Shown: positions 19,097 through 43,812 of the stretch, one piece after another | How positions within the stretch are numbered: position 1 is the stretch's first letter | Layout: each line of letters begins with the position of its first letter | Source: an uncultured bacterium | GTDB lineage: Bacteria; Krumholzibacteriota; Krumholzibacteriia; Krumholzibacteriales; Krumholzibacteriaceae | Length of the DNA: 64,000 nt | NCBI GenBank assembly: GCA_963813815.1 | Contig: CAWFAD010000012.1 | Location: 128,001-192,000 of the forward strand | Direction: 5' to 3' | Notes under the pieces: model-generated | Told to the model about the DNA's origin: nothing | Databases searched by the model: none | What the model saw: only the letters and a program-made list of their open reading frames with translations | Position numbers and translations under genes: made by a program

Positions 19097-19534
19097 CTAG
19101 CCGTTCTTCGTCCCGTGCGTGCTGCCGACCTTGGCGTCCGCCGGGCTCCCCGATTTATCGGAGCCGGCGTCGCCGGCGGCCTTGCCGAAGGCCTTGACCG
19201 CTTCCGCAACGGTGTCGAAGCTCTGGAGGATCGTCTGGAACTCGAGCAGCTCGAAAACCTCGTACACGTCGGCGACCATGGAAGCGAGCTTGAGATCGCC
19301 TCCGTTTTCACGGATCGATTTGATCTCGCTGATAAAGATGCCCCAGCCGGCCGACGATATGTAGTTCACGCCCGCGAGGTCGATGACGATGTTGAAGCGG
19401 TTCTTCTTGAGCAGTCTCTTGAGACTCTCCTCGAGCTCCGCCGACGTCGTGGTATCCACGAACCCCTGCACGGAAAGAACCGACACGTCCGGGTTTTCCT
19501 CGGGCTTCGAGAACGATACGTTGATCCCTTCCAT
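19097..19534 (-). CDS. STAS-domain anti-sigma factor antagonist
   Basis: GFVDTTT...IDLAGVNYISSAGWG...GGDLKL...VFELLEF. Confidence 0.9.
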   Translation of the reverse strand: MEGINVSFSKPEENPDVSVLSVQGFVDTTTSAELEESLKRLLKKNRFNIVIDLAGVNYISSAGWGIFISEIKSIRENGGDLKLASMVADVYEVFELLEFQTILQSFDTVAEAVKAFGKAAGDAGSDKSGSPADAKVGSTHGTKNG

Positions 19535-19559
19535 GGCAACCTCGCTCCTTCTTCCAGCG

Positions 19560-19928
19560 CTATGATGCTTTCGTGTTTTGAGACGCCGCGAACGCGGCGA
19601 TTGCTTCCTCGCGCGTTCCGTAGGGCCGAAGCAGCGTGCTGAACTCGAGGAGCTCGAAAACCTCTCTCACGTCCGGATGCATGGCCGTGAGCTTGATGTC
19701 TCCCCCCCGCTGGCGTATCCCCTTGATCTCGCCCACGAAAATCCCCCAGCCCGCGGAGCTGATGTAATTCACCTCGCTGAGATCGGCGACAATGCGAACG
19801 GTGTTCGACGCGACGAGCTCGTTGAACGTATCCTCGAGAAACTGCGCCGTGCCCGAATCGATGATGCCACCGAGCTTCAGGACGACGACGTTCTCCACGT
19901 ACTCTTCGCTAATAACGAGCTTGTCCAT
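19560..19928 (-). CDS. STAS-domain anti-sigma factor antagonist
   Basis: GIIDSGT...DLSEVNYISSAGWG...GGDIKL...VFELLEF. GAGAGG RBS before ATG 19928. Confidence 0.9.
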   Translation of the reverse strand: MDKLVISEEYVENVVVLKLGGIIDSGTAQFLEDTFNELVASNTVRIVADLSEVNYISSAGWGIFVGEIKGIRQRGGDIKLTAMHPDVREVFELLEFSTLLRPYGTREEAIAAFAASQNTKAS

Positions 19929-19973
19929 TATCTGGCCAGTCCTCTCCTCTGCCCCACCCTGAATTAGCAAACT

Positions 19974-21150: not shown

Positions 21151-21927
21151 TTACCCTTCCCTCTCCCCGCCGGCGCAGCGTGCGCCGGCGCGATCGAGGC
21201 CGAGGATCTCCTCGGTGAGATGGTAATAATCGAACGCTCCGCGCGAAAGCGGCGCGTGTTCGAATATCGTCTTCTGCCGCCCCGGGGCCTCCCGGATCGC
21301 CTGATTCGCCCTGATGACCGTTTTGAGGAGCCGGCCTCCGAAGCGCTCGCGAAGGCTCTCGAGCATGCTGTGCGCGAGCCGGGTGCGCGAATCGTAGAAC
21401 GTCGGCAGCAGCCGAATCGCAATCGGTCCGCGGCCGTTCCACGCCTGGATTTCCTCGACGATCTCGGCCGTCTGCACCGCGCCCGCCTCCGCCAGATAAT
21501 CCATCGAGACGGGGATGATCACCTCGTCGCAATAGGCCAGCGCGTTGATGTTGATGAGGTTCAACGACGGCGAGCAATCGCAGATCACGTAATCGCACCC
21601 CTTGAGCTGTTTCAGCGACTCGGAGAGGCGCTGCTCGCGGTTGACGCGCGAGCCGAGCGTGAGCTCGACCTCCGCGAGGCGCCGGCCGCCCGAATCGATG
21701 AAGAAGAGATTGTCGCGCACCTGGAGAATCTCGACTTCTCCCGAGGTCAGAAGGTCCGCCAGCCCGCGCTCCCCGCGGACGCCGAGGCTGAGGGCCACGC
21801 TCCGCTGCGGATCGCAATCGATGAGGAGCACCCGCTTCCCCGTGAGCGAGAGACCGTGCGACAGGCACAGCGCGGTCGTCGTCTTGCCGGTTCCGCCCTT
21901 CATGGTCATCACAGCGTACTTTTTCAT
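21151..21927 (-). CDS. ParA/Soj-family ATPase (orphan)
   Basis: Deviant Walker A KGGTGKTT, LIDCDPQ, DCSPS and EAP motifs. Confidence 0.9.
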   Translation of the reverse strand: MKKYAVMTMKGGTGKTTTALCLSHGLSLTGKRVLLIDCDPQRSVALSLGVRGERGLADLLTSGEVEILQVRDNLFFIDSGGRRLAEVELTLGSRVNREQRLSESLKQLKGCDYVICDCSPSLNLININALAYCDEVIIPVSMDYLAEAGAVQTAEIVEEIQAWNGRGPIAIRLLPTFYDSRTRLAHSMLESLRERFGGRLLKTVIRANQAIREAPGRQKTIFEHAPLSRGAFDYYHLTEEILGLDRAGARCAGGEREG

Positions 21928-21949
21928 GCCGCAGCCCAAACGCGCCCTT

Positions 21950-24900
21950 CTACTTCTTGCCCCGCGGCTTGCGATCCGAGTTGCGCAGCCGTTTGCCGTA
22001 TTCGTCCCAGCCTATCCGCGTGATGCGCTTGTCTTTGTCTTCGCGGACGTCCGTTCGCTTCTTGAAATCGATGAAAATCACTTTCTCCGGATCCGCGACC
22101 CGCTCGAGCGGTTCGAGCGGAGCGATCTTCGAGGCGCCCAGAAGCGCGTCCGCGAGATCCTGCTTCCGGTCCTCGGGCTCGGGGGCGGGCGCTCCCGCGG
22201 GCGCTCCGGGACCGGGCGCCGCCTCGGGCGGCGCGAAATCCGCGGCGCCTTTCGCCGGCGCCAGCTCCGCGAGCGCCATTTCGAGCGTTCCGTAATGCGG
22301 AATGAGCGGCTCGAAACCGAGATCGCGGAATATATTGAGAATGCTCGAGCTCATGCCGGCGATGGCGATGCGCCCGCCGGTTTCGCCGAGCTTCTGAAGA
22401 TACCTGATGATGATGCCCCATCCCCCGCTCGATATGTACACCATGCGTTCGACGTCCAGAATGAGATTGAGCGGCCGCTCATCCGCGCGCCGCGAGAGCT
22501 CCGCCTCGAACGCTTCGGCCGTCGAGGAATCGACGGCGCCGTCGATCGTCACCACGACGGTCCCTCCGACCGCGCGGGCGTCGCCTGCGGAAGCGATCGC
22601 GAGCGGCGTCCCGGCGCCCTCGGTCCGCTCCGCGCGGGGAGCCGCGGCGGCCTCGTCCGGAGGCTCCTCGTCGAGGATCTCCCCATCCGCGAGCGTCGGC
22701 GCCTCGTTCTTGAAATCCTCTATCGCCTCGGCCAGAACGCCGAAGGAGCGCATGATCGAGTCGAACCCGAGCAAGCTATAGATGCCGTCGACTTCCTGAT
22801 CCATGCCGAAGATCTTGAGATCGCCGCCCCGCAGTCTGATGTCCTTGATGCGCGAGGCGAACACTCCCCAGCCGCTCGAGCTCACGTACTCGACGCGCGA
22901 CATATCGATGACGATCTTCACCGCGCCGCGGTCGACGAGCCCGTCCAGAACGGAGCGGAGGTTCACGCAGCTCACCGTGTCCACGACCCCGTCGAGGTAC
23001 AACACGGTGATTTCCCCCTGATCTCCGACCGTCCCCGCCTCGATCTTGAGGGCGGCCCACGACGAATCCGTCTCCGGGACCTCTCCGGGCCCCGACGCGC
23101 CGGAAGCCGCCGTGGACTGGCGCGTTTCGAGCGTTCTGAGCGGGGCCGGGCGGGCCGATTCCCTCTCGAGTCGGCTCCGCCGCTCCGCGAGCGGGAGCGA
23201 GATATAAGCCGCCGCTTCATCGACCGTCGCGAACTGGAGGATGATCTCCTGGAAGCCGAGGAGCTCGTAGATGTCGTACACCTCCGGCGACATGCTGGCG
23301 AGCACCACGTCCCCCTCTCCCTCGCGAAGCGATTTGACCCGCCCCGTGAAGATTCCCCAACCGCCGCTCGATATGTACATCACCCCGGCGAGATCGACGA
23401 TGATCTTGCGGTATCCGTACTCGTGCACGCTTTCGAGAATTCCCTCGAGCTCTCCCGCCGACGAGGAATCGAGGTGGCCGGCCACGTGCAGCACCACCAC
23501 GTCCCCCGCGAGCTCCTCCGATGTGACCTCGATCGCCCGTCCTTGGCCGGTCCCGAACGACTCGCGGGCGCCCCGCCGGCGCAGCGGCGGCGCGCTCTCG
23601 CGACGGAGGGACGGCGCCGCAGCGGCCGGACGAGCTTCGGGAACGCTCGCCGGCGCCGCTTCCTCCGGGGCGGCTTCCGCGGGGGCCTGCGGCGCCCCGG
23701 CTGCCTCGGCGGCCGCCTCGGCCGGACGGCCGTGCGCGGCGACGAGCTTCTTGAACTCCTCGTCGGAAATGAACCGGTTGCGGCGCAGATACTCGAGCCG
23801 CATTTCGTAGGTGTTGAGCCGGATGCGCTTGAGCTCGTCGTAAACGATGGCGGGCGAGAGCAGGTCGCCCTCCGCCTTTCCCTCGTTGAACGCCGCGGTG
23901 ATCTTCTTCGCGCCGTAGCGGGGATGGTCGCGAATGATCCCGAGAAGCCCCTTCCGCTGCTCGATGCTCACGCGCCGGATATCGACCTCGCGTCGCAGCG
24001 TCTTGTCCTGCAGCCCCCGCTCCCCGAGCTCCTCGAGGCGCTTCTTGTATCGATAGTAGGTCGACGGCGACACCCGCATCATCCGGCAGGCCTCGGCGAC
24101 CGCCACCCCCTGCACCTCGACGAGATCGAGGAGCTTCCGCCGGATGCCGTAGAGCACCTCGTCCGCCTGGAGCTTCTCCTTGATTGCGACCACGGTGATG
24201 TCGTCGTTCTGCGGCTGATCGCCGGTAAAGCTCTTGATGTCGTCGTTGAGGCGATCGATGAACTCCTGCGGGGCGAGACGTCCGCACTGCTTGATGAGCC
24301 TGATGAGACGCTCCTCGCCGTATTGGTTGCGAGCGCCGTTCATCGCCTCCGTCACGCCGTCCGTATAGATGACGAGCATGTCGTCCTTCTTGAGCTTGAT
24401 CTTCTCGACGTCGATCGAGCGGCGGAAGAGCGTGTCGTCGGGCAGCTTGATGCCGACCGGAAATCCTCGCGGGTTGAGAAAATACGTCTCGTCCGTCTCG
24501 GCGCGGTAGAGGATCATCGGATTGTGGCCGGCCGAGGCGTAGCTGATGATGCGGTTTTTCGAATCGAGGATCGAGTAGAAGATCGTAACGAACATGCCTT
24601 TTTTCATGTCTTCCGTCACGAAATCGTTCATGCGCGCCATGACCTCGGCGGCCGAGTGGTTGCCCCGCGCCTCCATGCGCAGAGCCGTCCGGATCATCGT
24701 CATAACGAGCGAGCCGGGCACTCCCTTGCCGGAAACGTCCGCGACGACCACCCCGAGCGTGTCGTCGTCGACCCGCACGAAGTCGTAGTAATCGCCGCCG
24801 ACCTCCTTGGCGGCCCGGTAGAGGCTCGCGATGTCGTAGCCGCCGATCGTGGGGACGCGCTTCGGGAGCAGCGTCTGCTGGATTTCCTGCGCGACCTGCA

Positions 24901-26182
24901 TCTCCTTGTGGAGCCGCTCCTGCTCGACGACGTTCTTCTGGGCCTCGCGGAACTTCGACGTTATCTCGTTGAAGGCCCGGGCGATCTCGCCGATTTCCTG
25001 CGGCCCCGTGATTTGGATCTCGTCGCTGAGCGAGCCCTCGCCGATGGCGCGCACGCCGTCGGTGAGCGCCTGGATCGGGCGGACGAAAATGGCCACGAGC
25101 AGGTAGCTGAGCGCCACCCCGGCGGCGAATACGCCGACGAGTATGAGCGTCATCATGGGCCGCGGGTCGATGATATCGCCCGTCGCGATCGCCTCGGAGA
25201 TGCCCACGACGACGCGTCCGATCTCGGAGGTCTGCCCCCGCTCGGAATCGGTCAGGTAAACGGCCTGATGAAACTCGCGAATGAGACCGAGGCTGTCGTG
25301 GGCCACCGTCCGGTACGCGGCGCCGCGATCGAGCGAGCGCACCTCGGCGGGAATCGCGTACGTCGTGAGAAACTCGTCCTGCTGGTTCGAAGCGAAGATG
25401 CGCCCGTCGGCGTGCACGACGCGGATATACTTCACCTCGGGATACCGCTTTATCTGCCGCGGAATCGCATCCGTGCTGAGCTCGAGCCCGCTCACGTCGT
25501 AGGGATCCTTCGTGAGCGCGCCGACGCTCAGGCTCGCGATGGTTTCGGCGACCCGCTTGCGCTGCAGCCAGGTGTCGGCGAATCGGTCGCGCAGCTCGTT
25601 CGTCTGACGGTAGAGGAGAATCGCCCAGAGGAACACGACGAGGCCGAAGAGGCCGAGCGTCGTGCGCAACGCGAACTTGAATCGGAGCGTCGAGGTCCAC
25701 TTCGGCCGCCTGATCGAGCCGAAGAGCTGCGGCCGCGCGGCGGCCGCGGCCGAGTTTTTTACCATGTAGAGGCGATTCCCCGTCGGCGAAGCCGAATAGC
25801 TCAAATTGTCCATGAGGCGGTTCATCAGGTAGATGCCGAGACCGCCCTTCTTGCCGATTTCGACATAATGGTCGAGGTCGGGCTCCTTGACCTTGGACCA
25901 GTCGAAGGGCTCGCCGCGGTCGAAGATGCTGATCTCGACCGTGCCCGGACCCGCCTGAACGTCGATCCGGATGTCTCCGGCTTTCTCTTTGTACGCGTGT
26001 TTGATGATGTTCGTGCATGCTTCATCGACGGCGAGCTTCGTGTTGTTCGTTTCGCCCTTCGAGAATCCCGCGCGATCGCAGATGCCGGCGATGAAATCCC
26101 GGACCTCGCTCAGGTTGTTCTCGTCCGCGGGAACCTCGAGATGGAACGTCTCGCGCTCCCGCATGCGCTCGCCGCGTTTCAC
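21950..26182 (-). CDS. Hybrid partner-switching protein: RsbW-like Ser kinase, TM, periplasmic domain, TM/HAMP, SpoIIE PP2C phosphatase, HTH, 3x STAS
   Basis: Kinase AVDEACTNIIKHAY/DRGEPFD/GGLGIYL; two hydrophobic helices; HAMP EIGEIARAFN; PP2C VGGDYYD/ADVSGKG/YTDGVTEA/DDIT; three YxSSxGWG STAS motifs. Confidence 0.9.
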   Translation of the reverse strand: MKRGERMRERETFHLEVPADENNLSEVRDFIAGICDRAGFSKGETNNTKLAVDEACTNIIKHAYKEKAGDIRIDVQAGPGTVEISIFDRGEPFDWSKVKEPDLDHYVEIGKKGGLGIYLMNRLMDNLSYSASPTGNRLYMVKNSAAAAARPQLFGSIRRPKWTSTLRFKFALRTTLGLFGLVVFLWAILLYRQTNELRDRFADTWLQRKRVAETIASLSVGALTKDPYDVSGLELSTDAIPRQIKRYPEVKYIRVVHADGRIFASNQQDEFLTTYAIPAEVRSLDRGAAYRTVAHDSLGLIREFHQAVYLTDSERGQTSEIGRVVVGISEAIATGDIIDPRPMMTLILVGVFAAGVALSYLLVAIFVRPIQALTDGVRAIGEGSLSDEIQITGPQEIGEIARAFNEITSKFREAQKNVVEQERLHKEMQVAQEIQQTLLPKRVPTIGGYDIASLYRAAKEVGGDYYDFVRVDDDTLGVVVADVSGKGVPGSLVMTMIRTALRMEARGNHSAAEVMARMNDFVTEDMKKGMFVTIFYSILDSKNRIISYASAGHNPMILYRAETDETYFLNPRGFPVGIKLPDDTLFRRSIDVEKIKLKKDDMLVIYTDGVTEAMNGARNQYGEERLIRLIKQCGRLAPQEFIDRLNDDIKSFTGDQPQNDDITVVAIKEKLQADEVLYGIRRKLLDLVEVQGVAVAEACRMMRVSPSTYYRYKKRLEELGERGLQDKTLRREVDIRRVSIEQRKGLLGIIRDHPRYGAKKITAAFNEGKAEGDLLSPAIVYDELKRIRLNTYEMRLEYLRRNRFISDEEFKKLVAAHGRPAEAAAEAAGAPQAPAEAAPEEAAPASVPEARPAAAAPSLRRESAPPLRRRGARESFGTGQGRAIEVTSEELAGDVVVLHVAGHLDSSSAGELEGILESVHEYGYRKIIVDLAGVMYISSGGWGIFTGRVKSLREGEGDVVLASMSPEVYDIYELLGFQEIILQFATVDEAAAYISLPLAERRSRLERESARPAPLRTLETRQSTAASGASGPGEVPETDSSWAALKIEAGTVGDQGEITVLYLDGVVDTVSCVNLRSVLDGLVDRGAVKIVIDMSRVEYVSSSGWGVFASRIKDIRLRGGDLKIFGMDQEVDGIYSLLGFDSIMRSFGVLAEAIEDFKNEAPTLADGEILDEEPPDEAAAAPRAERTEGAGTPLAIASAGDARAVGGTVVVTIDGAVDSSTAEAFEAELSRRADERPLNLILDVERMVYISSGGWGIIIRYLQKLGETGGRIAIAGMSSSILNIFRDLGFEPLIPHYGTLEMALAELAPAKGAADFAPPEAAPGPGAPAGAPAPEPEDRKQDLADALLGASKIAPLEPLERVADPEKVIFIDFKKRTDVREDKDKRITRIGWDEYGKRLRNSDRKPRGKK

Positions 26183-28089
26183 CGCGCACCCCCCGCTCCG
26201 CCGCTGTTCTGAAGGCGCTTGCGGGCCTCCCCGATGTTCCTCAGCACGCTCTCGTTATCGGGATCGATTTCGAGAATCCGCTGCCACCGCTCGACGGCCT
26301 TCAGGTAATTCCCGTCCGTGAAATGCTTCATTCCCTCGAGATAGAGAGCGCGCACCTCCGCCTTTTCGCCGTCGCTGAGCGGGGTCATGCGCCGCTCGGC
26401 GCGCAGCAGCAGGGTTCGCGCCTCCGCGTGCTTCGGATCGATGGAGAGCAGCTCCCTGATCTGTTTCACGGCGTCCGGATACCGCCCCTCCCCGAACGAC
26501 CTCACGGCGCCGTCGTAGAGCTCCGCGACCCGGAGCCGCTTGGCCGTCGTGAGATAATCCCGGCTCATCTCGTCGACTCGCTCGTTCAGCCGCTCCACGG
26601 CTGCGAGCGCCTCGGCGGATTCGGGCACGATCGTCCGGACCATATTCCACTCGCCGAGTGCGGCTGCGAGCTGTCCCTGCCGCTCGAGATCGAGGGCCCG
26701 CTCGCGGTGCTGCGCCGCGAGGCCATCGAGCTTCTCCTCGGTCGCTCCGAGATACTCCGCCGCCTGCCCGTTCTCCGGATCGATCTCGAGGACACTCCGC
26801 CATTCCGCGCGGGCGCGGATATAATCTCCCGTGCCGTAGTATTCGAGTCCGAGACGGAAGTGACGGTTCGTGAGGGCCGCTTTTTCGGCGTCCTTCGTCC
26901 GCTGCTCTTCCGCTGCGAGAACGTCGCGCTCGACCACGCTGATGGTGTCGGCGACGGCCCGGCTCGTCGGATCGTACTCGAGGGCGATTCTGAGCTCGTC
27001 GAGCGCCTTCGCCGGCTGCCCATCGCGCCGGAACTGCTCGGCGGAGGCAATGTGGCCGGCGATCCTCCTCGTGAGCATCTGCTGGATGCGACGTTCTTCG
27101 TCGGCGAGGCGCCGCTCCTCGCGCAGCCGTATACGGTCGTCGATCGAGGATCCGATCCGGGCGGAGAGCGAGAGCGGATGCGCGCTTCCGGCCTCCTCGC
27201 GGCTCAGATAGCCGTAATCGAATCCGAAGCCGTGCCAGCCGACGCCGACCCCCGCCGTGATGCTTTGCCCGTCGTATCCGGCGCGGATCGCGAGAAAGTC
27301 CCGGAACCGGTACTCGGCCCCGGCCCGCACCTTCGTGTCGCCGCGCGCGGGAAGATCCATCTGCGCCGCCAGCACGAGCGCGGAGCTCTTTCCCAGCGCG
27401 CGGGCGTAGCCGGCGCCGATCATCACGGTGCGGTCCACGGGCTCGCTCACCGAGACGAGCTTGATCTCCGCGCCGACGATATCCTGAAGGTTGCACCCGA
27501 CGCGGAGGCCCTCCAACCAGCGCGGCTGGTACACGAATCCGACGTCGAGCCCCGTGCCGGTATCCGAGAAATCTCCGACGCGCTGGCTCAGCATCTTCGC
27601 CGACGAGCCGACGGTGACCGCGCCGGCGTAACGCCACGGCAGCGTGTACGCGTAGGCGACGATCATCTGACTCTCGCGGTAGCTGAGCTCGCCCGTTTCA
27701 CGGCTCCACTCGTCGAACCCGCGGATGCCCCCCGTCCCCGCCGTCATGAAGCCCGCGCCGAGGGCGCCGGCGGAGATCGTCGGATACACGAAACCGAGAA
27801 AGTCGTATCCCGTGTCGCTCCATCCGGAAAAGAGCTGCGCGTGGCTCGCGAGCACCGCGGTGTACCGGTTGAGCGCGAGGGCGGCCGGGTTGTAGAACAA
27901 CGCCGACGCGTCGTCGCCCACGGCGGAGAAGGCTCCCCCCATGGCGATCGCCCGCGCCCCCGCCCCGACGGCAAAGATCGAGCTCGTGCCGCCCGTTCCC
28001 TCCTGCGCCGCGACGCTCGACACGAGCATCGCCGAGAGCAGGACGGCGGTCAACGCCGCATACCGATGGTTCGTTCGCATACCCATCAC
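26179..28089 (-). CDS. PorV/PorQ-like beta-barrel fused to C-terminal TPR array
   Basis: Signal peptide, GAGARAIAMGGAFSAVGDDASALFYNPAAL, GAEY...LAIRAGY...FDYGY, then TPRs (LEIDPEN, LSIDPKH, LEIDPDN). Confidence 0.85.
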   Translation of the reverse strand: MMGMRTNHRYAALTAVLLSAMLVSSVAAQEGTGGTSSIFAVGAGARAIAMGGAFSAVGDDASALFYNPAALALNRYTAVLASHAQLFSGWSDTGYDFLGFVYPTISAGALGAGFMTAGTGGIRGFDEWSRETGELSYRESQMIVAYAYTLPWRYAGAVTVGSSAKMLSQRVGDFSDTGTGLDVGFVYQPRWLEGLRVGCNLQDIVGAEIKLVSVSEPVDRTVMIGAGYARALGKSSALVLAAQMDLPARGDTKVRAGAEYRFRDFLAIRAGYDGQSITAGVGVGWHGFGFDYGYLSREEAGSAHPLSLSARIGSSIDDRIRLREERRLADEERRIQQMLTRRIAGHIASAEQFRRDGQPAKALDELRIALEYDPTSRAVADTISVVERDVLAAEEQRTKDAEKAALTNRHFRLGLEYYGTGDYIRARAEWRSVLEIDPENGQAAEYLGATEEKLDGLAAQHRERALDLERQGQLAAALGEWNMVRTIVPESAEALAAVERLNERVDEMSRDYLTTAKRLRVAELYDGAVRSFGEGRYPDAVKQIRELLSIDPKHAEARTLLLRAERRMTPLSDGEKAEVRALYLEGMKHFTDGNYLKAVERWQRILEIDPDNESVLRNIGEARKRLQNSGGAGGAR

Positions 28090-31000
28090 TTCGCCACGGC
28101 GATCTTGAAGAGCGCCGATTGCGAGCCAGCCTCGACCTTGCAGAGATACACGCCGTTTCTCACCGTTTCTCCGCGGGCGTTCCGCCCGTCCCAGGGGATC
28201 TCATGCATGATCCCGTCGGCGGAGCCGGTGCCGCCCTCCTCGCCCGAGGCGATTTCCTTCGTCCAGACGAGAATGCCGGCGAGATCGTAAATGCGGATCG
28301 ATACCGCCGCGTCCTCGAGCAGGAAGTAGCAAATGCGCGTTTCCTGCGATCCCGCGGCGAAGGGGTTCGGATAGTTGTGGACATAATCCTCGAAGCGCGC
28401 GCTCAGAACGGTCAGCGGACCGCTCAGGAACGAGCCGGCGATGTCCCCGCCCTGATCGTCCACGACGCCGACGCGCGATCCCGCGCCGCCGCCCTCGAGC
28501 GTGATCGAGAAAACGACGTCGGCGCTCTCTTCGATTTCGAAGCGAATCTCCCCTGCCGGGGCGTTCGCCGCGATATCGGCGGTGAGGAGCAGCGTGTCAG
28601 CGGCGCCGGGAACGACCTCGAACGCATGTCCCGCCACGATCGGCACCGGGTTCGCCTCCGAGACCGCCGCCTCGAAGCGAACCCCTCCCGCCACGAGCGC
28701 GACGCCCGACACCCGCCGCGAAGGCGGCGAGACGAGCCGGCCGGTCCCGTCCTTGATCGCCACGTAGAGCGTATCGAGCCCGATCGTGTAACCCGACGTG
28801 TTCTCGAACTCGGCGCGCATGATCGGCACGCCGGCGGCCCCCTGGGGAACGACGACCGGCGGGATGGTATCGAGGGAGGAGAGGTTCAACATGCGCACGG
28901 CGCCCGTCTCCGTCTGCACCGGCAGGAACACTTCGCCCGTCGTCACCGCGCAGGCGAGGTTCGTGTTGACGTCCTCCGCCAGCGGCTCGACGAACCTGAT
29001 CTGCAGGTTCCCGGGGGACGTGGGCTCGGCGGGCGCGCGCACGTTCCACGCGACGGGCTCGCCCGGATAGAACGGCTTCCGGTAGGTCTCGCCCGCTCCG
29101 TCGAGATCGTAATTCTGGCCCGAGGGCAGGACGAGCTCGATCCGCGCTCCCGCCGTGTCGACGCCCGCCTCGCCCGCATTGGCCGCCGTCGCTTCGATCG
29201 TGAACGACTGATTCACGGACAGGATCCCGTCGAGCGCCCCGTCGGGACCCGATATCCGCCCGGCGAGGGCGAGAGCCGCTTTTTCGACCGCGCGCACGGC
29301 GAACACGACGCGGCGAACGGGGAGCCGCTCGCCCGAGTTGGCGTCCACGCCTCCCGCCCGTCCGACGAGCGTGTCGACCGGAGCGGCGATCGAGGGCGCC
29401 CGAACGGTCCAATCGAGCGTTACGAGCTCTCCGGCGCCGGCTCCGACAAACTTGATCATGTCCCCCGCGACGGCGTACCCGGCGGGCGCCGAGAGCTCGG
29501 CCCACACCGAATCGGCGTTGACCGAGGGAACGAGCGCCACGCGCGCGACGAACTCCTGATCCGTCGAGAGAACGCCGTCGACGGCTCCCGCGGGGGCCGC
29601 CACGGACACCGAGCATTCGGCGATGCCTCCGGCCTCTTCCGTACGCGCGACGATGCGCGACTCGGCGGTTTGGATTGCCGCGGGCGAGCCGATATTGATG
29701 TCGTTCGGAACGGAGCTGATCGACGCCCGCAGGGTGTCGAGCGACGGAGCCGCCGGCGCTACCAGCGTCCACTCGAGCGGCGCGCCCGCGTCGAACCGCC
29801 TCGTGAGCGGATCCGCCGGATCGGCGAGGCTCATCGAGACCGGCAACGCGAGCGTCACCCTGCCCGTCGTATCGATCGCGGCTTCTCCCGCGTTTTCGAC
29901 GAGAACGGTCACGACGAAGATCTGACCGGTCGAAAGCGTGTCGTCGATCGCCCCCGCCGGCGAGGTGATGGAAGCGCCGCACGCGAGGAGCGCGGCGGTT
30001 TCAATCCTCAGATTCTCGATCGACTCGACGGCCTCCGCCGGCGTCACGGGCTCTCCCGTGTTGACGGAAACCGCCTTCACGATCGAGGCGCGCAGATATT
30101 CCACGGCGCTCGACGGCGCCGCCGTCACCGCGTAGACGAAATCCCGTTCGGTTCGCGACGGCATGTAGGCGAGAGAGTCTCCCTCGACGAGGGTGCCCGA
30201 AACGCCGCTCGTCGCGAGCCTCACGAGAACGCTGTCGAGATCGTCCCCGCCCGTATTCTCCACCCGCACCGTGAGGTTGAAGGTCTGGCCGGTGTTGACG
30301 ATCGACGTGTTCGCGAATGAGGCGTTGTTCGGCGCGTCGCTCGTCACGGCGACTATTCTGAGCCCGGAAGGAGGCCGCACGAGCACCGATCCGCTCCCCG
30401 AGGCCGGCGGTCGCGGCGCCTCGGGCTCGTTGCCGTCGATCCAACCGAGCGTGGCGGCGATATCGACCGAGCCGGTATCGCGGCCCGTCGCGGCGATTCG
30501 ATAGAGAAGCGTATCGGCCGCGCCTCCCTCGAGCACGAGCGGCGAGGCTCCCGACACGAAGGTCTCCGGCGCGATGACGAGGTACCCTCCGACCGAAACG
30601 CCGTCGATGGAGAATGCCAGATCGTCCGAAGCGGCGGCGTCGATCTCGAGCGGCGCCTCGCCGTCGTTCCGCACGCCGACATCGATGGTCCACTCGATGG
30701 TCTGTCCGGCGTTCACCGCCTCCTGCGAAGGGGTGACGGCGGTCACGACGAGCGCCGCCGGTCTCTGTATCACGGCCAGCGCCGTATCATCCACGGCGGC
30801 GTCGAACAGCACGTAATCGCTCTCACCCGAGTTGGCGTCGACGGCCGAGCGGATGCGCGCCGTGAAAATCTCCGAGCCCTCGCCATCCGCGGTCACGAGA
30901 AACGTGTCGGAAGCCGACGCGAACCCGGCGATGGCATCGATGAAGACGAGGGTGTCGGCGATGGCGGACGAGCCCGAACCCTCGAGCGCGACGCCGACGT

Positions 31001-34000
31001 TCTCGACTCGCGCCTCGCCGCCGTTCGCAACTTCGGCGACGACGACGAACTGCTGCCCCGAGTCGACGTACGGCGCGCGCGGAGCCGCGGTGGCCGCGAG
31101 CGCGACCGCCAGCCGGGCCTGCGCCTGCACGCGGATCGAGCCCGAACCCGAGCCGTCGAGCCGCGTGTCGTAGGAACGATGAACGCCGTTGTTGTTCTCC
31201 ACGAGCTCGACGTCCGCATGGAGCTCGATGTCGGCGCCCGCGGGAATCTCCGGCGTCGGAGAAACGGAGAACACGAGGTGGCGGCATTCGCCGCCCGGCA
31301 GATCGAGCCCCCCCTCGACGAACGCCGGCGGCCGCGCATGGGCGAGCGGCAGACCCTCGTCGCGGTAGACGCGCGCGCTGTCGGGGATGAGCGTGAGATC
31401 AGCCTCCCCCGCGTTGCAGACCTCGCACGCGATCTGCCACGGGGTCGTTTGCGCCGAGGTCACGGTCGCCCGCGAGGGCGCGCTCGAAACGACGGCGGGA
31501 TCGCCGGGCAGCTCGACCATGACGTGGCTGAAACCGCCGCTATAGGTATCGTCAGAGACGGTGAGATTGCTGTTGACGTCGGTGCCCGTCACCGTTCCGT
31601 TCACGAGGGCGATGCCCGGGGTCGAACCCGTGGAGGTCACCGTGAAGAGGAGACTGTCGACCGCCCCTCCCGGAAGAATGGCGCCTCCGATGCCCGAGAG
31701 CGCCGCCGGGCGTACGACGGTATATTCATACGTCCGGTCTCCCACCCCGACGATCGTAAAGGTGAGGAAGGTCTTCGCCGCCGCGAGATCGAGGGAAACG
31801 GACGCCTCGCCGCTGTTCCGGAGCTTCATCCATACGTTCCACGGCTCCGTCTGGGAGCGGGTCACCGATTGAGGCGTGACGATGCCGCTGATACCGAGCT
31901 GGGGCGCCTGCTCCACGAGAACGGAATCGGGCGAGAGCGGCAGCACGGTCGAGAACGGATTGCCGTTCTCCTCCCCGACGAGCCGGATGAACGCGGCGTG
32001 CCTGCCGAGCGAGAGAGCGACGTCGACGAGCGCGGCGTCGAAGAGCAGCGTTTGCTGGCTCGCGCTCGGCAGCACGTTGGGGGACACGTCCGAAAGCGAC
32101 GTGCGGACGGTGTCGCCGTCGGCGTCGCCGAAGCTGAGCGTCGTCGCCGAGCGATCGAGCGTGAGGGTCGAGCGCAGACCGGCATCCGCGGCGATAGCCG
32201 CCTCGAACGAGACGCTCGTGCCGCTGCTCGCGGCGAGTGGAGCGAGGCTTCCCGTCACGTACGACGGATCGGGAGGCAGCTCGAACGTGACGGTATCCTC
32301 CGGCGCCGCCCGCGACGCGAAGACGTGCCGGTCGCTCGTCGTTTCCACGGCGAGAACGGAGCCCGCGAGCGCCAGCGTTCCCGGAGAGATCATTCCCGTC
32401 GTCGACACGGTGAACACGAGCCGCCCCGCGGCGCCGCCGCGCAGAACGGTTCCGCCCTCGACGAGCGCGAGCGGATTGTCGATGACGAACCCCGATCCCC
32501 CCGGAATCACGACCCGGGTCGAATCGATCCGCCCCAGCTCGAGCGCCGCGTCCGACTGCCCGGTGTTGCGCACTTCCATTTCGACGCTCCACGCGCGATC
32601 CTGCGATACGGTCACGGGATTCTGGAGCGGCGTGATGCGGGAGATCGCGAGCGCGGCGGGCGTCTGCACGAGCACGTCCCCGCTGATTCCCTGATCGCCG
32701 CTCGCGAGAGAAATAATCCTGCCGCTCGTGAGCTCCGTGCCCCGGACGGTCGACTCGACGACGCAGGGTCCGGCGACCGAGCCGCTCCGGTCGATCCGCC
32801 AGCGGAGCGTATCCGTCGATCCTCCCTCGAGCACGACGCCGCCTCCGGCGAGCTCGACCGGCGGAACGACGATGAAATCGCCCGAGGTCGAGAAGGCGAT
32901 AAAGCTGGCCGCCGGATCGAGATCGAGCCCGAGGTCGGATTGACCGGCGTTCCGCACCGCCACGTCGCAGAACCAATCCTTCGTCTGAAGCGCCGTGACC
33001 GTGTCCGTCGAGGCCGTGACGGCCGCGAAGACGAGGCTCGCCGGCGTCTGCACGAGATAGCTCCCCTTGCCTCCGTACTCGGTCGTGGCGAGCAACGAAG
33101 CGCCGCTATTGAGATCCCGCCCCGCGAGAGCGGATTCGATGACGATCGTGCCCGTCGTCATGGCCCCGGAGGGATTGTCATCGAGCCTCACGAGAATCGC
33201 GCGCGTTTCGCCGCCGAGGAGAGAGTCGACATTGGGCGTGAAATCGAGCGGCGCGAGGATGCATTCCCCCGTCACATCGACCGGCCCGGCGAGGAGGCGC
33301 ATGGAAAAGCTCTCGAGGCGCACGGTGGCTCCGCCGTTGTTCCTGACCTGCACGCTCGCGAACCAGGGGGTCGCCTGATCCGCCGTGACCATGGGGGCGG
33401 GCAGCACCGTCGTGCTCGTGATGGCGAGCTGCGAGGGCTCTTGTACCCCGACGCTATCGGCGAGCGCGAAGATCGACGCGAAACGGAGGCCGTTCTCGGA
33501 TCCTCCGATCGCGAGTGAAGGCGGGTAGCTCCCGACGGCCATGTCTGAGGGCACGACGGCCGCTCTGAAATAGAGCGTCGCGACGCCGGGATCGATCGTT
33601 CGCCCGCGCGTCGCGTCGAGGGAGGCGGCATACGTCAGGGAGCCGTCCGTGAAGGTGAACCACGTCGAGTCGGGATCGCAGAGGACGCTCGCGCCCCCCG
33701 AGTTGGCCACGCCGACACCGAACGAGACGTCGCTCTGCTTGCTCACAACCGCCGGGGCGAGAGTGCCTATCACGTACGAGACCGCCGCGGGATCCACGAC
33801 CCTCATCTCGTCGGAGAGAACGAGCGTCGTATCGAAAAACCCGCCGTTTTCGGTTCCGCGGAGCCGCACCGCGACAGGCCAGCTTCCCGCGTCCATGGCC
33901 GTAGGCACAGAGACCGGCGGAAACACGAGCGCCGTGGCCGTGTTGCCCGGGATCGCCCCCGCGTAACCGAGCGGGACGGAAACGGCGTCGGCTCCGTCCG

Positions 34001-37000
34001 TGAAGGAGAGCCTCGTCTCCGACGGATCGAGTATGAGCGCCGCGTCGCCGGCGTTGCGCACGGAGAGGGAGAACGAATGCGTCTGCCCTCGCGATACGGT
34101 GTCCGGATCGAGCGTGGAGGCGACGTAGGACAGCGACGCCGCCGCCTGCACGAAGATGACCGACACGTTCGGATAGGCCGTTTGATCCTGCACCTGCGAG
34201 CCGTTGGCCTGCGCGGTGATCGACGCGTCGATCGTGTCGAAACCGAGCGGAGAGTAGCCGAGAGCGAATATATCATGACGGTAGAGCCGCTCCGCCCCCG
34301 GAGCGAGATCGTCCGGAAGCGGCGGATTCCAATCGCCGGCCATACCGTAGAAACCATTCGCGAACTTCAACGTTATGTCGATCACCGACACCGTCGAGCC
34401 GCCGCCGTTGCGCACGCGCACGTCCACGGTGAACGTGTCCCCCCGGCTCACGATCGCTTTCTCGGAAACGACCTGCAGGATGTCGACGTCCGAGACCGAT
34501 ACCGAATTCGATCCGGCGCTGAACTCGCCGCGGTACGAGAAACCGTAGATATCGTTCCCCGCGAGCGCCACGCGCGGCGTGTACGTGCCGCCGAGCAGGC
34601 CGGCGGGAACGACGACCGTTTGGAAGTCGAGCGTATCGGTCGCGGAGCCCCGCAGAAACGCGGGTGCCGCGAGATGAGCCTCGTAGACGTGTCCGAGACT
34701 GTCCGCGAACGATATGGTCGTCGCGGTCGAAAGGTACGTTCCCGTCGGACTCGTGTTGGAGGTCGAGCAGCGGAACTGAGCCGGCTCCGTGGGAAGGAGA
34801 TGCCGCGGCGCGAGGTAGCCCGCATAGAGGCAAACGGGCGCCGGAGCGAACACCACGGCCACCGATCCGACCGCGCTTCCAGTGACGCTCTGGAACTCGA
34901 CCGTCGAAACGGCCGGCGAGGTCGCGGAACGAACGAAGACGGACACCGCGCCGCTCGCCTCCGTCTGGCGCTCGACGGTGAGCGGCGTCGAGGGATCCTT
35001 GTCTTCGCTGATGACCGTTCCGGCGGAGGCCGTGACGCGCACGAGGGTGCCCGGCGCGACGACGTTGCCGTAGACATCGCGTATCGCCCCCGTGCTGATG
35101 GCGCTCGTGCTCGTGCCGTTCGCCGTGATGGTGTCGGGGATCACCGTCGCGATGCCGATCGCCCCGCTCGGCGCCTCGGGCGACACCGTGATCGTGCCGC
35201 TGTAGCTCGTGGCGCCCCCGGCGAGCGTCCGGGCCCGGAGAACGAGGAGCTCCGCGACGGTATCCCGGGCGCTCGCGGTCGCGCGGCCGGCCGACAGCGT
35301 GACCGGGTTTACGGCGAACGTCGCGGAGCCGTCGCTCGCGAGCAGCACCCGGGTCGTGTCGTCGTCGAACGCTTCGTTCCCGTACCCGTCGTACGCGATT
35401 ATCTCGACGGCGAAGCTCTCCCCCGCCTTTTTGGCGAAACCGTCCGGAATGACGTCGAACCGGGCGATGGTGCCCGCGATCGTCCCGACGTCGAACACGA
35501 CCTGCTCGAGCAGGGGCGGCGAGGCGTCGAGAATGGAGGCCGAAACCGAATTGACGCCGGCATTCGCGTCGGTCGTGAGCGCGCAGAGCGCCGCGCCGCC
35601 GGCGTCCGTGAGAACGAGCCCGTCGTTCGCGGCGCCGGTGCCGTCCCAGAGGACCGGGGATCCGCCGAGATCGCTCGTGACCTGAAAGCGAACGATCTCG
35701 TCCGGCGCGGCGTTGCCGTACCGGTCCGTCACGCGGGCCCTGAGATCGACGGAAGCCCCCGCGATGACCCCGGAGGTGTCTCCGTTGACCTCGACGACGC
35801 GGTAGGCGGCCGCCGGTTCGATCGCGATCTCCGCGCTCCAGGGAGCGAGCGTATCTCCGGCGAGCGAGAGGACGGCGATGCGGTTCGCCCCCGCCGTCGA
35901 ATCGAAAGCCGTGAACGAGGAGACGCCCGCGAGAAGCGTCATGACATCCGGGGTGAAATCGATCGACGCGCGCTCGGCCACCGCCCTGAGCCCGGTGCTC
36001 GAATCGGTATCGATCAGGTTACCGTAAACGTCGTACGCCGCGACCTCGCAGGTGAACATTTCTCCGGCCGTGAAGGACGTTCCGGGCAGCGACAGCGCGA
36101 CACGGTCGATGGCGCTCCGCGGAACGGTCGTCACGGTGAATCCCTGCGTCTCGAGACCCTCGGGACTCGCGTCGAGAATGGCGGCGCGCGCCCGATTCGT
36201 CCCGCAGAGCGTATCCGTGCGGAACCAAGCCCGAGCGACGCCCGCAGCGTCGCTCACCGCGAGCGGCGACGAGATCGCCCCGCCGCCTTCCTGCACGGTA
36301 AAGAACACGCTGTGGCCGTCGACCGTGTTGCCGTACGCGTCGAGCACACGCGCGGCGAGACGCACCGAATCCCCCACGGCGACTCCCGAGCTGTCCCCGC
36401 CGATCTTCACGAGCTGGTAGGCCGCTGCGTTGCCCACGGAGACGGCGCCGCTATACCCCTTGACGGCATTGCTCACGCTCGAGACCTCGACGCGGATGGG
36501 CTCCGCCACGGTGTACCGGAAATTGGCGCCGGCAAAGAGCCCGTTCACGAGCGTTCCGCTCGCGGGCGAAAGGGCGCTCGAGGCCGTCTGTGTGCTGTCG
36601 GAAGCCTCGACGGCCCTGAAATCGACCGTATAGCCGGCGGAGGCGACCCGGTTGCCGTAGAGATCGCGCGCCTCGGCCGTGACGGCGAACTCCGCCCCCG
36701 CGACCGCAGCGGCGGGAGCGGTGACGACGTAGGAGCTCACGACATCGTTCGCCACGATGAGAATCGGAATCTGCGCCGGCGCGAGGACCGCCGCTTCGTC
36801 CAGAGCGTCGATCTGCCATGAGCCGGCCCGCGTGCCTCGACCGTAGATGATAACGGCTCCCGAGGCGAGGTCCGCTTCGGTGATCGTCGCGCCGAAATCG
36901 CTCAAGCTGAACGAGAAGCCGCCGTCGACCGACGCTTGGAGAAGTATGCGGCTCGAGTTCGCGAGGTCCCGGTTGCCGTTCCCGTCGACCGCCTCGACGA

Positions 37001-40000
37001 CGAAGGAGAAGGTGATGCCCGCCTGCGACGTCGCCCCGGCGAGAACGGTCGCCCGCAGATCGGTCGCCCCGCTCGAAACGGACGAATAGACGGCGTCGAC
37101 GACGCTGGCGGAAGATACGGTGTTCGTGTAAGCGTCGATGGCGTCTTGCGCCCCGGCCGAGGCGGGGGCATGATACGTGACCGAAACGGTGCCGGTGCTA
37201 TCGCTCGTGCCGCGGCGCATCGACAGAGTGAGCTCTTCCGTCGTGCTGCCGGCCGCTGCGCTCAGATAGCCGTCGGCGGGAGTGTCCTTGATGTAGATCG
37301 TGACGTTTTCGTTGAAAACGAGGTTGTTGAAACCGTCCCGGAGCGTGGCCGTTACGGTCGTTTCCGTGTTCACCGTCACCGGCTTGCTCGCGGGGGCGAG
37401 CGCGACGGAGGCGACAGGTCCGTGATCGGTCGTCGCCGTGAAGACCGCTTCGCGAACGGTCCCGGTGGAAATCGCCGCCGTCGCTTCGTTCGTGTTGAGA
37501 CCGGCGACCGTTCCGAGCCGCCAGTATTCGCAGGATGCCGTTCCCGCGCCGCCCGTGACCGCCGTGGTCTGCACGCCCGCGAGCGCGACGCTCGCGTCGA
37601 TCGCGCCGCCCCCCGCCGTGGCGGCGAAGGCCACCGTGACGCCGGGCACCCGGTTTCCGAATGCATCCTCGACCGCGACGACGAGCTGCAGCGGCACCGG
37701 CGTATTGACGACCGCCCGCTGTCCGTCTCCGCTCACGGCGTAGACTCTATCCGCGCCCGCCGGAGAAACGGCGAGCGCCGTGGCGGACGCCGACGACACG
37801 CCGCCACTCGCCGCGGCGATCGTGATCGACTCCGCCAGGCGGTCCGTGATGAGGAGCTCCGCGTCCCCGCCGTCGATCGAGACGAACTGATAGGTCACGG
37901 TATCGCCGGCTTCGGACACGATGAAGCCCGCGGCGTTTCCGAGCCCCCACGTCGCCTCGTCGGCGGCCGCGGCCCTCACCGGATATACTTTGACCGTTCC
38001 GGCGAACGAGGTGAGCTTGTTGTTGTTGGCGTCCCGGGCGTCGATCGACACCGCCGCGGGAACCCCGGCCGTAGCCGTCCCGCCGTGCGTGACGATAAAG
38101 TGGTGGAGCGCTCCCGCCGTAAACGCCACGGGTACGACGTCATCGAGGAGAGCGCCTCCCGCGCGCGCCCGGATGCTCTTTATCTCCGCCACGGTCGACC
38201 GGACGCTCCCGGCCGCCCGGCCGTCCGCGCCCGTCACGACCGAGGGCTGAGCAATAGTGTTGCCGCTTCCCGTGCATTCGAGGGTCACGAGAACGCCGGG
38301 GATCGGATTCGAATCGGCGTCGCGCACGTACACGGTCACGATCACGGCATCCGCGCCGTCGGCGATGATCGCCGTTTTGTCGACCTGGATCTCGGAAACT
38401 ACCGGGTCGAAGGGGCCCGGCACAAAGCTCACGGCGGCTCCCGCCGTGACGAGCGCACCGTCCACGCGAGCCCGAATCGTTTTCGTCTCGGCGACGGTCG
38501 ATTTCACGCCGCCCCTCGCAAGGCCGTCCGGGCCCGTGAGCCCGACCGGCTGCCGTATGTCGTTCCCGCTCCCCGTGCACTCGAGCGCCACGACGCTCCC
38601 CGAGATCGGGTTCCCTTCCCCATCCCGAACAGTCACCGTCACGAGCACGGAATCGGCGCCGTCGGCCGTGATCGTCGTCTTGCTCACATCGAGGTCGGAT
38701 ACGTCAGGAGAGAAAGGCCCCGCCGCGAACGTGACAGGAATGCTCTCCGCCAAATAAACCGCGTCAACGAGCGCGCGTATCGTCTTACCCTCGGCCGCGG
38801 TCGATTTCACGCTTCCAACGGCCCGGCCCAGTACGTCGGTGAGGCTCCCCGGCTGCCGGATCGAGTTCTCCGTTCCCGTGCACACGATCGTCACGGCCTT
38901 GCCCGAGATCGGGTTCCCCTGCCCGTCCCGGACAGTCACCGTCACAACGATCGAGTCCACCCCGTCCGCCGTCGCCGTCGTCTTGCTCACCGCAATGTCC
39001 GACACCGACGGATCAAACGGTCCCGTCACGAACGAGACGGGAATGCTCTCCACCAGGTAAACCGCGTCAACGAGCGCGCTGATCGTCTTCCCCTCGGCCG
39101 CGGTCGATTTCACGCTTCCAACGGCCCGGCCCAGTGCGTCGGTGAGGCTCCCCGGCTGCCGGATCGAGTTCTCCGTTCCCGTGCACTCGAGCGCCACAAC
39201 GCTCCCCGAGATCGGGTTCCCCTGCCCGTCACGAACAGTCACCGTCACAACGATCGAGTCCACCCCGTCCGCCGTCGCCGTCGTCTTGCTCACCGCAATG
39301 TCCGACACCGACGGATCAAACGGACCCGTCACAAAGCTCACCGCCACGAGCTCCGTCAGATATATCCCGTTCGCTCGAGCGCGTATCGTCTTGCCCTCCG
39401 CCACCGTCGACGCCACGCTCCCCACCGCCACCCCACTCGCGTTCGTCACCGCACCCGGCTGCCGTACGTCGTTCCCGCTCCCCGTGCACTCGAGCGCCAC
39501 AACGCTCCCCGAGATCGGGTTCCCCTGCCCGTCACGAACAGTCACCGTCACAACGATCGAGTCCACCCCGTCCGCCGTCGCCGTCGTCTTGCTCACCGCA
39601 ATGTCCGACACCGACGGATCAAACGGACCCGTCACAAAGCTCACCACCACCTGCTCCGTCAGATATATCCCGTTCGCTCGAGCACGTATCGTCTTGCCCT
39701 CCGCCACCGTCGACGCCACGCTCCCCACCGCCACCCCACTCGCGTTCGTCACCGCACCCGGCTGCCGTACGTCGTTCCCGCTCCCCGTGCACTCGAGCGC
39801 CACGACGCTCCCCGAGATCGGGTTCCCCTCCCCGTCTCGAACAGTCACCGTCACAACGATCGAGTCCACCCCGTCAGCCGTCGCCGTCGTCTTGCTCACC
39901 GCAATGTCCGACACCGACGGATCAAACGGACCCGTCACAAAGCTCACCGCCACGAGCTCCGTCAGATATATCCCGTTCGCTCGAGCGCGTATCGTCTTGC

Positions 40001-43000: not shown

Positions 43001-43016
43001 GCAAGGTGTGTGCCAA
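43001..43016 (-). promoter_or_regulatory. Sigma54 (-24/-12) promoter of the giant-protein operon
   Basis: TTGGCAC-ACACC-TTGC matches TGGCAC-N5-TTGC exactly, 50 nt upstream of ATG 42950. Confidence 0.75.
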
Positions 43017-43809: not shown

Positions 43810-43812
43810 GAT

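Follow-up and report, generated by a model that had tools for sequence, protein, structure and literature searches.

A transposase-type helix-turn-helix module, old and unusual, in a partner-switching sensor protein of the Krumholzibacteriota

In eukaryotes, the domestication of transposase DNA-binding domains is a classic source of new regulators. For prokaryotes, the available sections of a 2022 review on the recruitment of mobile-element genes name helix-turn-helix (HTH) and ribbon-helix-helix proteins of phages and antitoxins as sources of transcription factors, and the front ends of insertion sequence (IS) transposases are not among the sources named there (PMC8987985). In the CapK/CapS system, according to the accessible part of the report, a GHKL kinase phosphorylates a STAS-HTH repressor, which releases CapS from DNA (Chambers et al. 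2026; PMC13373217). In Vibrio fischeri, as described in the available text, the serine kinase and PP2C protein SypE controls the STAS protein SypA, and the output is not a sigma factor but biofilm formation (PMC10120452). The DNA examined here is a 64,000-nt stretch (the window) of contig CAWFAD010000012.1, assembly GCA_963813815.1, from a member of the Krumholzibacteriota (Krumholzibacteriaceae). A gene on its minus strand (21950..26182), identified from an open reading frame (ORF) list, its translation and Pfam and NCBIfam profiles, encodes a 1410-aa protein in which an HTH module sits between a PP2C phosphatase and the first of three STAS domains. Judged from sequence, this module is real, old and unusual, and the protein is a variant of the partner-switching design that carries a transposase-type HTH pair. 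A literature search, whose coverage left out most subscription papers, found no description of this fusion.

The module spans residues 671-803 (23774..24172, minus strand); it abuts the last PP2C strand and begins at the position of a transposase start methionine. Its first unit (HTH1, residues 673-724, 24011..24166, minus strand) contains the recognition helix SPSTYYRYKKRL at 24035-24070, with a net charge of +4. The second unit (HTH2) with its terminal helix (residues 739-803, 23774..23968, minus strand) carries an LNTxxxRL motif that it has in common with an IS481 subgroup. An earlier note on this DNA had placed a domesticated module of IS481/IS630 type at 23740-24150. The peptide it described is in frame within the 1410-aa ORF, but those limits were shifted and, as given, out of frame. 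The proposed ancestry stands for the transposase type and for IS481, and fits IS630 much less well: the NCBIfam IS481 transposase profile NF033577 matched with E=5.3e-16 (53-59 bits, positions 2-109 of 284), followed by weaker matches to IS3 (9.3e-8), IS630 (2e-7), and ISNCY (2.4e-4). As a whole protein, the match does not qualify as IS481, its 53-59 bits comparing with a curated cut-off of 224 bits. In Pfam, residues 681-781 matched HTH_29, HTH_28, and HTH_23 above the cut-off and HTH_32, HTH_Tnp_1, and TnsD below it. The profile check that the note had suggested (HTH_23/28/29/32) thus returned only transposase-type families and no HTH family of another type.

The note had also remarked on a missing catalytic domain and missing terminal repeats, and both remarks are borne out. 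A six-frame search of positions 19001-28000 of the window found no DDE core, and no convincing pair of inverted repeats surrounds the module. The genome contains no copy of the 26-nt terminal repeat of the nearest IS481 subgroup, even with as many as 6 mismatches allowed. Furthermore, the genome holds one strong copy of the module, and the gene order is the same across the class and in other phyla, which means that the module is not mobile. Because the DDE domain, the terminal repeats, and mobility are all missing, the segment is not an IS481 element. The G+C content at third codon positions is 0.91 in the module and 0.81-0.88 in the other domains; this is ordinary, and therefore there is no sign of foreign composition. 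As far as sequence reveals, the segment behaves like a domesticated transposase domain. In the IS481 subgroup nearest to the module, the elements of seven loci have terminal repeats of the form TGT...(A/C)TT(G/A)ATCTGACA, which are shared from Krumholzibacteriota to Alphaproteobacteria.

The substitution pattern indicates that purifying selection maintains the module across five or more little-studied phyla. The ratio of nonsynonymous to synonymous substitution rates (dN/dS), taken from 30 loci selected by the whole protein, was 0.10-0.11 for HTH1 and 0.15-0.19 for HTH2; in the wider set, synonymous sites approach saturation. For comparison, the ratio was 0.07-0.08 for PP2C and 0.12-0.14 for the first two STAS domains; the outside domain stood at 0.37 and a Pro/Ala-rich linker at 0.56-0.58. 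An orthologous kinase domain was found in 88 of 208 genomes of the phylum, and a module match accompanied it in all 88 (lists compared by hand). The orthologues thus retain the module under purifying selection, a point that the earlier note had left to be checked. Two families of the phylum, f4 (0/91) and f7 (0/12), have no orthologous kinase domain, and their module matches are weak and of transposase level. Beyond the phylum, PP2C with the module occurs in single copy in 80/86 genomes of Calditrichota, 61/99 of the G211 phylum, 26/101 of Eiseniibacteriota, and 6/151 of Gemmatimonadota. The search alignment for these phyla included rows from the same phyla, and the independent IS481 profile was used as a check; it found the module in 60 of the 60 top-scoring loci fetched (54-96 bits). 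The polymorphism-type ratio pN/pS was below 0.6 for both HTH units in the loci of other phyla. Homologues with names are Candidatus Krumholzibacteria, a few being labelled Latescibacterota. The core of kinase, sensor, HAMP, PP2C, and module is constant among the homologues, and the part that follows the module differs, consisting of STAS domains, TPR repeats, a stretch of unknown type, or nothing.

The module is predicted to bind DNA, on the strength of its modelled fold and of its residues. In an AlphaFold2 model, the module forms a pair of HTH units of three helices each, along with another two helices (mean confidence, pLDDT, 87.9; predicted template-modelling score, pTM, 0.60). The top Foldseek rows for it were the bipartite DNA-binding domains of Pax5, Pax6, TnsB, MuA, and Tc3, none at E<=0.001. 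A PDB sequence search with the module gave nothing meaningful (3 matches, best E 0.044), and a wide structural search returned generic HTH and Myb matches only (Z <=7.0). The first recognition helix has a median net charge of +4, equal to that of transposases and of fusions with GT2 glycosyltransferases. Residues S705, P706, T708, Y710, R711, and Y712 are invariant in 105 orthologues of the phylum, and S705, T708, Y709, Y710, and K/R713 are retained across phyla. A module-wide loss of DNA-binding charge (median +6 vs +12.5) was considered and not upheld for the recognition helices. A complex prediction for a kinase-domain dimer with the module, bearing on the idea of a sigma-mimicking client, scored 0.00 in two runs and counts neither way.

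The host protein consists of an RsbW-type kinase, a transmembrane (TM) segment, a Cache-like sensor, a second TM segment, HAMP, PP2C, the HTH module, the Pro/Ala linker, three STAS domains, and a C-terminal motif. All coordinates that follow are on the minus strand. The kinase domain, HATPase_c_2 of the RsbW/SpoIIAB serine kinase type (residues 17-142, 25757..26134; PF13581, E 8.5e-31), has an N-box and a G-box. The two TM segments, placed from hydrophobic stretches, enclose an extracytoplasmic sCache_3_2-like domain (25085..25687; Cache match below the cut-off, E 8.8e-5), and a Pfam HAMP domain lies at 24938..25084. The SpoIIE/PP2C phosphatase (24173..24862; Pfam residues 472-668, PF07228, E 2.9e-51) shows the motifs GGDYYD, DVSGKG, TDGVTE, and NDDIT, and its top fold match was PDB 3ke6, which is Rv1364c of Mycobacterium tuberculosis. 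The catalytic motifs of kinase and phosphatase were thus located in one chain, in invariant columns. After the module comes the poorly conserved Pro/Ala-rich linker (23543..23731), which served as the internal control in the selection test. The three fused STAS domains (22268..23506) lie at 23213-23506, 22712-23014, and 22268-22561, the first corresponding to residues 893-990 in Pfam. Each contains a Y[IV]SS[GS]GWG motif with a presumed phospho-serine inside. Two stand-alone STAS genes (19097..19970, at 19560-19970 and 19097-19534) are of the W-containing type without an extra HTH, so that SS[GAS]GWG is found in all five STAS domains of the window. The acceptor position in them is presumably that assigned by homology to SpoIIAA. 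The C-terminal motif D.K(I/L)R.(L/M/I)GW..YG..L (21986..22033), six positions of which are kept by no fewer than 103 of 105 orthologues, is near-invariant and preceded by an unconserved tail. It accompanies the presence of ParA in the loci viewed and is faintly like the GW...L helix of the STAS-linked HTH2 described next.

In other phyla, the STAS gene that follows the sensor gene often has an HTH2 copy at its end, terminal helix included, attached through a long flexible linker. This STAS-HTH2 arrangement was found in 18/20 loci of Calditrichota, 9/10 of Eiseniibacteriota, 3/3 of Gemmatimonadota, and 3/7 of the G211 phylum; in the remaining two Calditrichota loci and one Eiseniibacteriota locus, both parts are present in different frames. 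A STAS-HTH2 domain match occurs in 83/86 Calditrichota genomes, and the ESM Atlas holds similar clusters in Calditrichota and Zixiibacteriota. HTH_21 matches below the cut-off were obtained for 3/4 STAS-HTH proteins of other phyla. The STAS-linked copies are basic (median +8). They probably are duplicates of the captured module, because they share with the enzyme HTH2 a YG loop that is missing in IS481 and score higher against the enzyme HTH2 (41 bits) than against IS481 (21 bits). Calditrichota carry a second STAS-HTH2 paralogue. Among 18 fetched, 16 have a priming sugar transferase gene within the same 9-kb locus, and Wza and Wzc follow in both annotated loci, indicating an exopolysaccharide operon. 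Upstream of the sugar transferase in eight of these operons lies the conserved element GGCGGAGC, preceded in most of them by TTCTGTGAG..AATCATA; the GGCGGAGC element resembles an antitermination (ops-type) signal. The set from the module's own phylum comprises 21 loci recounted by hand, one being the far half of a split gene and one having a weak module. None of the 21 has a stand-alone STAS-HTH2, and 17 of them, like the window, carry STAS in the same chain after the module. The split sensor gene is seen in one contig (G200:C1), with halves about 870 kb apart, each edged by a run of N within the module; it is probably a scaffolding artefact.

What does the module do? The favored reading, which falls a little short of an even chance, is that it serves as a DNA-binding output gated by STAS phosphorylation in a kinase/phosphatase switch without a sigma factor. 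As its starting point, this scheme takes the layout that the sequence shows: the module directly adjoins PP2C, no linker lying between them, and is followed by three STAS domains with phospho-acceptor serines. By analogy with RsbW/RsbU biochemistry, the outside sensor and HAMP would then determine how kinase and phosphatase are balanced against each other and thereby the phosphorylation of the STAS serines. This phosphorylation may in turn alter the oligomeric state or the masking of the HTH pair and hence DNA binding, as in CapS. In Calditrichota, Eiseniibacteriota, and Gemmatimonadota, the role of mobile arm would fall to the soluble STAS-HTH2 copies; in the lineage of the window, the membrane protein itself contains this pairing of HTH, linker, and STAS. 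Finally, the gene neighborhood suggests that the regulated functions may concern the cell surface, namely a giant secreted protein and exopolysaccharide.

The neighborhood is that of a surface-protein cluster. Its first gene (28086..42950, minus strand, likely start ATG at 42950) encodes a giant Big_1/invasin-repeat protein; the full ORF (28086-43106, minus strand) has 5006 codons and about 13 repeats, several nearly identical, and assemblies of relatives often break within it. It is followed by a PorV/PorQ-family gene with TPR repeats (26179..28089, minus strand), the most constant neighbor across phyla, then by the sensor gene and by a ParA-family ATPase gene (21151..21939, minus strand) that occurs across some, not all, of the range of the family. 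The order of giant Big_1 protein, PorV/TPR, sensor, and STAS is common to the class and other phyla, and ParA, TPR, VWA, and LTD genes are partial additions. Pfam and NCBIfam, which are general libraries rather than a defense-system library, identified these neighbors as surface-protein, PorV, TPR, ParA, and STAS genes, and no gene of the sigma-70 family lies within the window. Three adjacent genes at 43417-46184 (minus strand), which encode CBM48/AMPK-type glycogen-binding domains, lie immediately upstream of the giant gene.

The region ahead of the giant gene (42950-43417) had been proposed in the earlier note as a target of the module, a proposal to which its conserved features offer a simpler alternative. 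It holds a sigma-54 -24/-12 promoter, TGGCAC-N5-TTGC (43001..43015, minus strand; 29/30 loci), and an upstream element, TTGCRWTTTGC-N9-TGnTATTTT (43245..43273, minus strand; 28/30 loci), which can be read as a sigma-70-like promoter with an overlapping site of enhancer type. The sigma-70 reading rests on spacing by eye, a promoter scanner having called no sigma-70 promoter at its threshold in 42900-43500. The element lies mostly 240-290 bp upstream of the sigma-54 promoter, and in part of the loci IHF-like matches occur near -116 and -300. Such a layout of a sigma-54 promoter with a distant element fits an enhancer-binding protein, as at NtrC and LuxO promoters. Since the genome encodes 13 strong Sigma54_activat domains as well, the conserved element fits a sigma-54 activator more simply than it fits the module. 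Promoter and element are conserved across the order, and in one Eiseniibacteriota locus the large upstream gene is likewise preceded by a sigma-54 promoter and a TTGC..TTGCAA element.

This simpler explanation is one of several points that weigh against a DNA-binding output. No DNA site could be tied to the module in the regions tested. The IS481 terminal-repeat core, which would be a target of the SETMAR kind, was found in 0/30 upstream regions of the giant gene at one mismatch, and it was also missing from two sets of 41 intergenic regions at one mismatch. An inverted decamer pair (43023-43032 / 43126-43135), whose only two occurrences in the genome lie in this promoter region, was rejected as an operator: relatives lack it, and 6 of 100 shuffles give two matches at one mismatch. 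A comparison of giant-gene and exopolysaccharide upstream regions in Calditrichota, where by eye the giant gene mostly comes directly after another coding sequence and several start calls are wrong (broken frames), revealed no shared motif by eye or with two patterns. The module itself has also diverged from transposases. The arginine of the HTH1 'SR' pair, present in 88% of IS481, is not among the top three residues in the fused modules, the R..P..PN linker of transposases is gone, and in the second recognition helix D/E-E replaces G..N/V (E783 in 74%). Some Calditrichota first recognition helices read SPYMYRK or SPAHYYR. In CapK, deletion of the kinase's own HTH had no effect, according to the accessible part of the report (PMC13373217). 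Four of the 21 own-phylum loci have neither a fused STAS nor a STAS-HTH2. Lastly, in a clade of about 20 genomes of the G211 phylum, HTH1 is eroded: 4 of the 4 loci examined have another sequence in place of the first recognition helix and have lost the linker, and they keep HTH2. The adjacent STAS and giant genes are missing from these four loci, and related STAS genes lie elsewhere in the genomes. The kinase domain of this clade scores lower, and the gene is flanked on one side by an RNase R-type gene with a PorV-like gene and on the other, in the annotated locus, by histidine biosynthesis genes.

One possibility, somewhat unlikely, is that the module is a protein-docking part. The HTH2 of the enzyme would then pair with the HTH2 of STAS, or both with a shared third partner, for substrate specificity or for a membrane complex, and the soluble tag would have been lost where STAS became fused in cis. 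The distribution of the copies speaks for this possibility, because HTH2 has been duplicated onto exactly the cognate W-type STAS, including the second paralogue elsewhere in the genome (18/18 fetched), and because the own-phylum loci combine the absence of a stand-alone STAS-HTH2 (0/21) with STAS in cis (17/21). So do the acidic second recognition helix of the enzyme (E783) facing basic STAS copies (+8), the survival of HTH2 after HTH1 in one clade, and the fixed PP2C-module junction of 10-11 residues in 68/70. However, the HTH1 recognition helix is among the most conserved stretches in the phylum and keeps its DNA-binding charge. Furthermore, the module stands beside a plain unfused STAS in 4/21 own-phylum loci, 3/7 loci of the G211 phylum, and two further Eiseniibacteriota loci, and therefore no tagged partner is in view at those loci.

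A separate question is where the module came from. An IS481 N-terminal profile was built from 97 DDE-bearing transposases (a seed and 96 listed relatives of at least 325 aa); its seed was itself chosen by the module, and the score of 82.7 bits that it gives the module measures closeness to one IS481 subgroup, not to all IS481. The match covers positions 3-128 of 135 with one 3-residue insertion and includes the LNTxxxRL helix. Position 1 of the profile, the transposase start methionine, aligns with residue 671/672, and a methionine stands at one of these residues in 98/105 close orthologues (15 at 671, 83 at 672). In 68/70 fusions, 10-11 residues separate the last PP2C motif from the beginning of the module. 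A junction at the start methionine with fixed spacing would result from in-frame capture of the 5' end of a transposase gene. The best plasmid matches to the module are IS481 transposases with 32-34% identity (so annotated in 23 of 30 listed rows). A tree was built from 78 rows (30/43 non-redundant fused modules, 24/64 GT2 repeats, and all 24 transposases; unstable outgroup), and the fused modules formed one clade in it with support 99/97. The direction from transposase to host is quite probable, being favored by the junction position and left unproven by the tree, and the fusion is likely ancient, captured long ago.

The alternative concerns the origin only and is unlikely: the module would belong to an old bipartite HTH family common to the sensors, the GT2 fusions, and IS481, with IS481 as the possible borrower. 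A profile search with 23 module sequences among 1.84 billion representatives retrieved 908 proteins at E<=0.001, and the best 150 of these comprised 74 PP2C fusions, 38 GT2 fusions, only 1 DDE transposase, and 37 fragments or others. The tree is also compatible with such an origin, which counts against capture: a constraint that joined the transposase rows was not rejected by the approximately unbiased test (p-AU 0.296), the outgroup was unstable, and the sister relation of the fused clade to the IS481 subgroup had an approximate likelihood-ratio support (SH-aLRT) of only 84. Against it stand the start of the module where the transposase starts, with a methionine common there in spite of being internal in the fusion, and the curated families matched, which are all transposase families. 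The same layout is found in the IS3, IS630, and ISNCY profiles, and therefore the use in transposases is the more widespread one. The GT2 proteins among the best 150 matches form a second family, in which a doubled IS481-type module is N-terminal to hydrophobic segments and the GT2 domain, the proteins reaching up to 2949 aa. They are possibly a second domestication of the IS481-type module.

The module could also bind DNA as a tether or an input, holding the sensor and a secretion site at the nucleoid, possibly with ParA, or letting DNA tune the phosphatase. This is improbable. The absence of a linker between the module and PP2C agrees with it, and so does a higher pTM for PP2C with the module (0.79, pLDDT 86.6) than for the module alone, which by the model hints that at least one HTH is packed on PP2C. 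The host protein has two TM segments, and therefore access to a promoter would need DNA at the membrane. A ParA gene follows the sensor gene in families f1, f2, f3, f5, f6, and f9. However, ParA is missing from the f8 loci, and also from those examined in Gemmatimonadota, Eiseniibacteriota, Calditrichaceae, and the G211 phylum, and every one of these groups has the module; this distribution rules out a ParA partnership as the general role. In f6 and f9, ParA also has a small neighbor of its own that looks ribbon-helix-helix-like (fold by eye). A small ORF of about 80-90 aa between the ParA and TPR genes of six loci looks by eye like a ribbon-helix-helix protein with a basic N-terminal tail; the window lacks it, its ParA and TPR genes being 64 bp apart.

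That the module is a recent passive insertion or a functionless decaying remnant is hardly credible, because a homologue that stops after PP2C (G540) and the eroded HTH1 of one clade are outweighed by a dN/dS far under that of the neighboring linker, by retention in 88/88 own-phylum orthologues and in five phyla, and by ordinary composition. Up to a conserved PP2C motif, the G540 gene (G540:C118) shares 90-100% identity with relatives that carry the module, and past this motif it diverges abruptly; as it also nests among these relatives, it is a chimera or recombinant, and this nesting and break rule it out as a pre-capture form.

An IS transposase-type module has become a fixed, near-universal single-copy signaling part in Calditrichota, is widespread in four more phyla, and has been duplicated onto substrates. 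If it binds DNA, a phosphorylation switch could act on DNA through a transposase-type module. It would then be a candidate downstream output for partner switches without a sigma factor, a question that the available text leaves open for SypA (PMC10120452). If it is instead a docking tag, a DNA-binding fold would have been converted to an address label. The question is testable with two small soluble domains.

How does this system compare with known ones? The N-terminus of IS481 transposases (NF033577; LxTxxxRL subgroup) likewise has two HTH units, an HPxYG motif, and the LNTxxxRL helix, 126 positions being aligned from the start codon. In contrast to IS481, the module is without DDE or terminal repeats, single-copy, and syntenic; it has lost the SR arginine and R..P..PN, and its second helix is acidic. 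CapK/CapS, the nearest system whose logic has been tested, resembles the present one in its GHKL anti-sigma-type kinase, a STAS joined to HTH, the lack of a sigma factor, and a kinase that also bears an HTH, as far as the accessible text goes (PMC13373217). It differs, in the same text, in a soluble CapS with a winged HTH, a CapK activated by single-stranded DNA, and immune-operon neighbors, no phosphatase being described there (PMC13373217). The present system combines kinase and phosphatase in one membrane sensor, has an HTH pair of transposase type with predicted DNA binding, and lies among genes for surface proteins. No winged-HTH STAS repressor of the CapS type was found: the stand-alone STAS proteins of the window have no HTH, and the STAS-HTH proteins of other phyla carry an IS-type HTH that probably derives from the module. 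SypE, alike in joining serine kinase and PP2C in control of a STAS protein, has a kinase, REC, and PP2C and neither membrane sensor nor HTH, and SypA is a single STAS domain, by the available description (PMC10120452). The second STAS-HTH2 in the Calditrichota exopolysaccharide operon parallels the biofilm role of SypA given in the same sections (PMC10120452). Rv1364c of Mycobacterium tuberculosis also has PP2C, kinase, and STAS in one chain and is reported to act both ways on its own STAS serine; it differs in a PAS sensor, another domain order, and interaction with SigF, and no HTH is among the domains listed in the available part of that paper (PMC10950880).

A further comparison is with eukaryotes. 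The Pax paired domain and SETMAR, which we take to be domesticated transposase DNA-binding domains, are alike in that a bipartite transposase-type HTH is kept in a host protein without transposition. In the Foldseek search Pax5 and Pax6 occupied the top two rows and SETMAR row 17, all above E 0.001. They differ in that they come from another transposon superfamily, are eukaryotic, and have proven DNA binding; SETMAR, by its PDB title, binds the terminal repeat of its own transposon, and the IS481 repeat core is missing from the promoters tested here. The most far-reaching reading, a doubtful one, is that of a bacterial counterpart to Pax and SETMAR. A single capture of an IS481 front end, before phyla related to the Fibrobacterota-Chlorobiota-Bacteroidota group split, would have founded a transcription circuit without a sigma factor, in which an HTH-bearing sensor and STAS meet on DNA and switch surface and exopolysaccharide genes by serine phosphorylation, and a separate, doubled domestication would have occurred in membrane glycosyltransferases.

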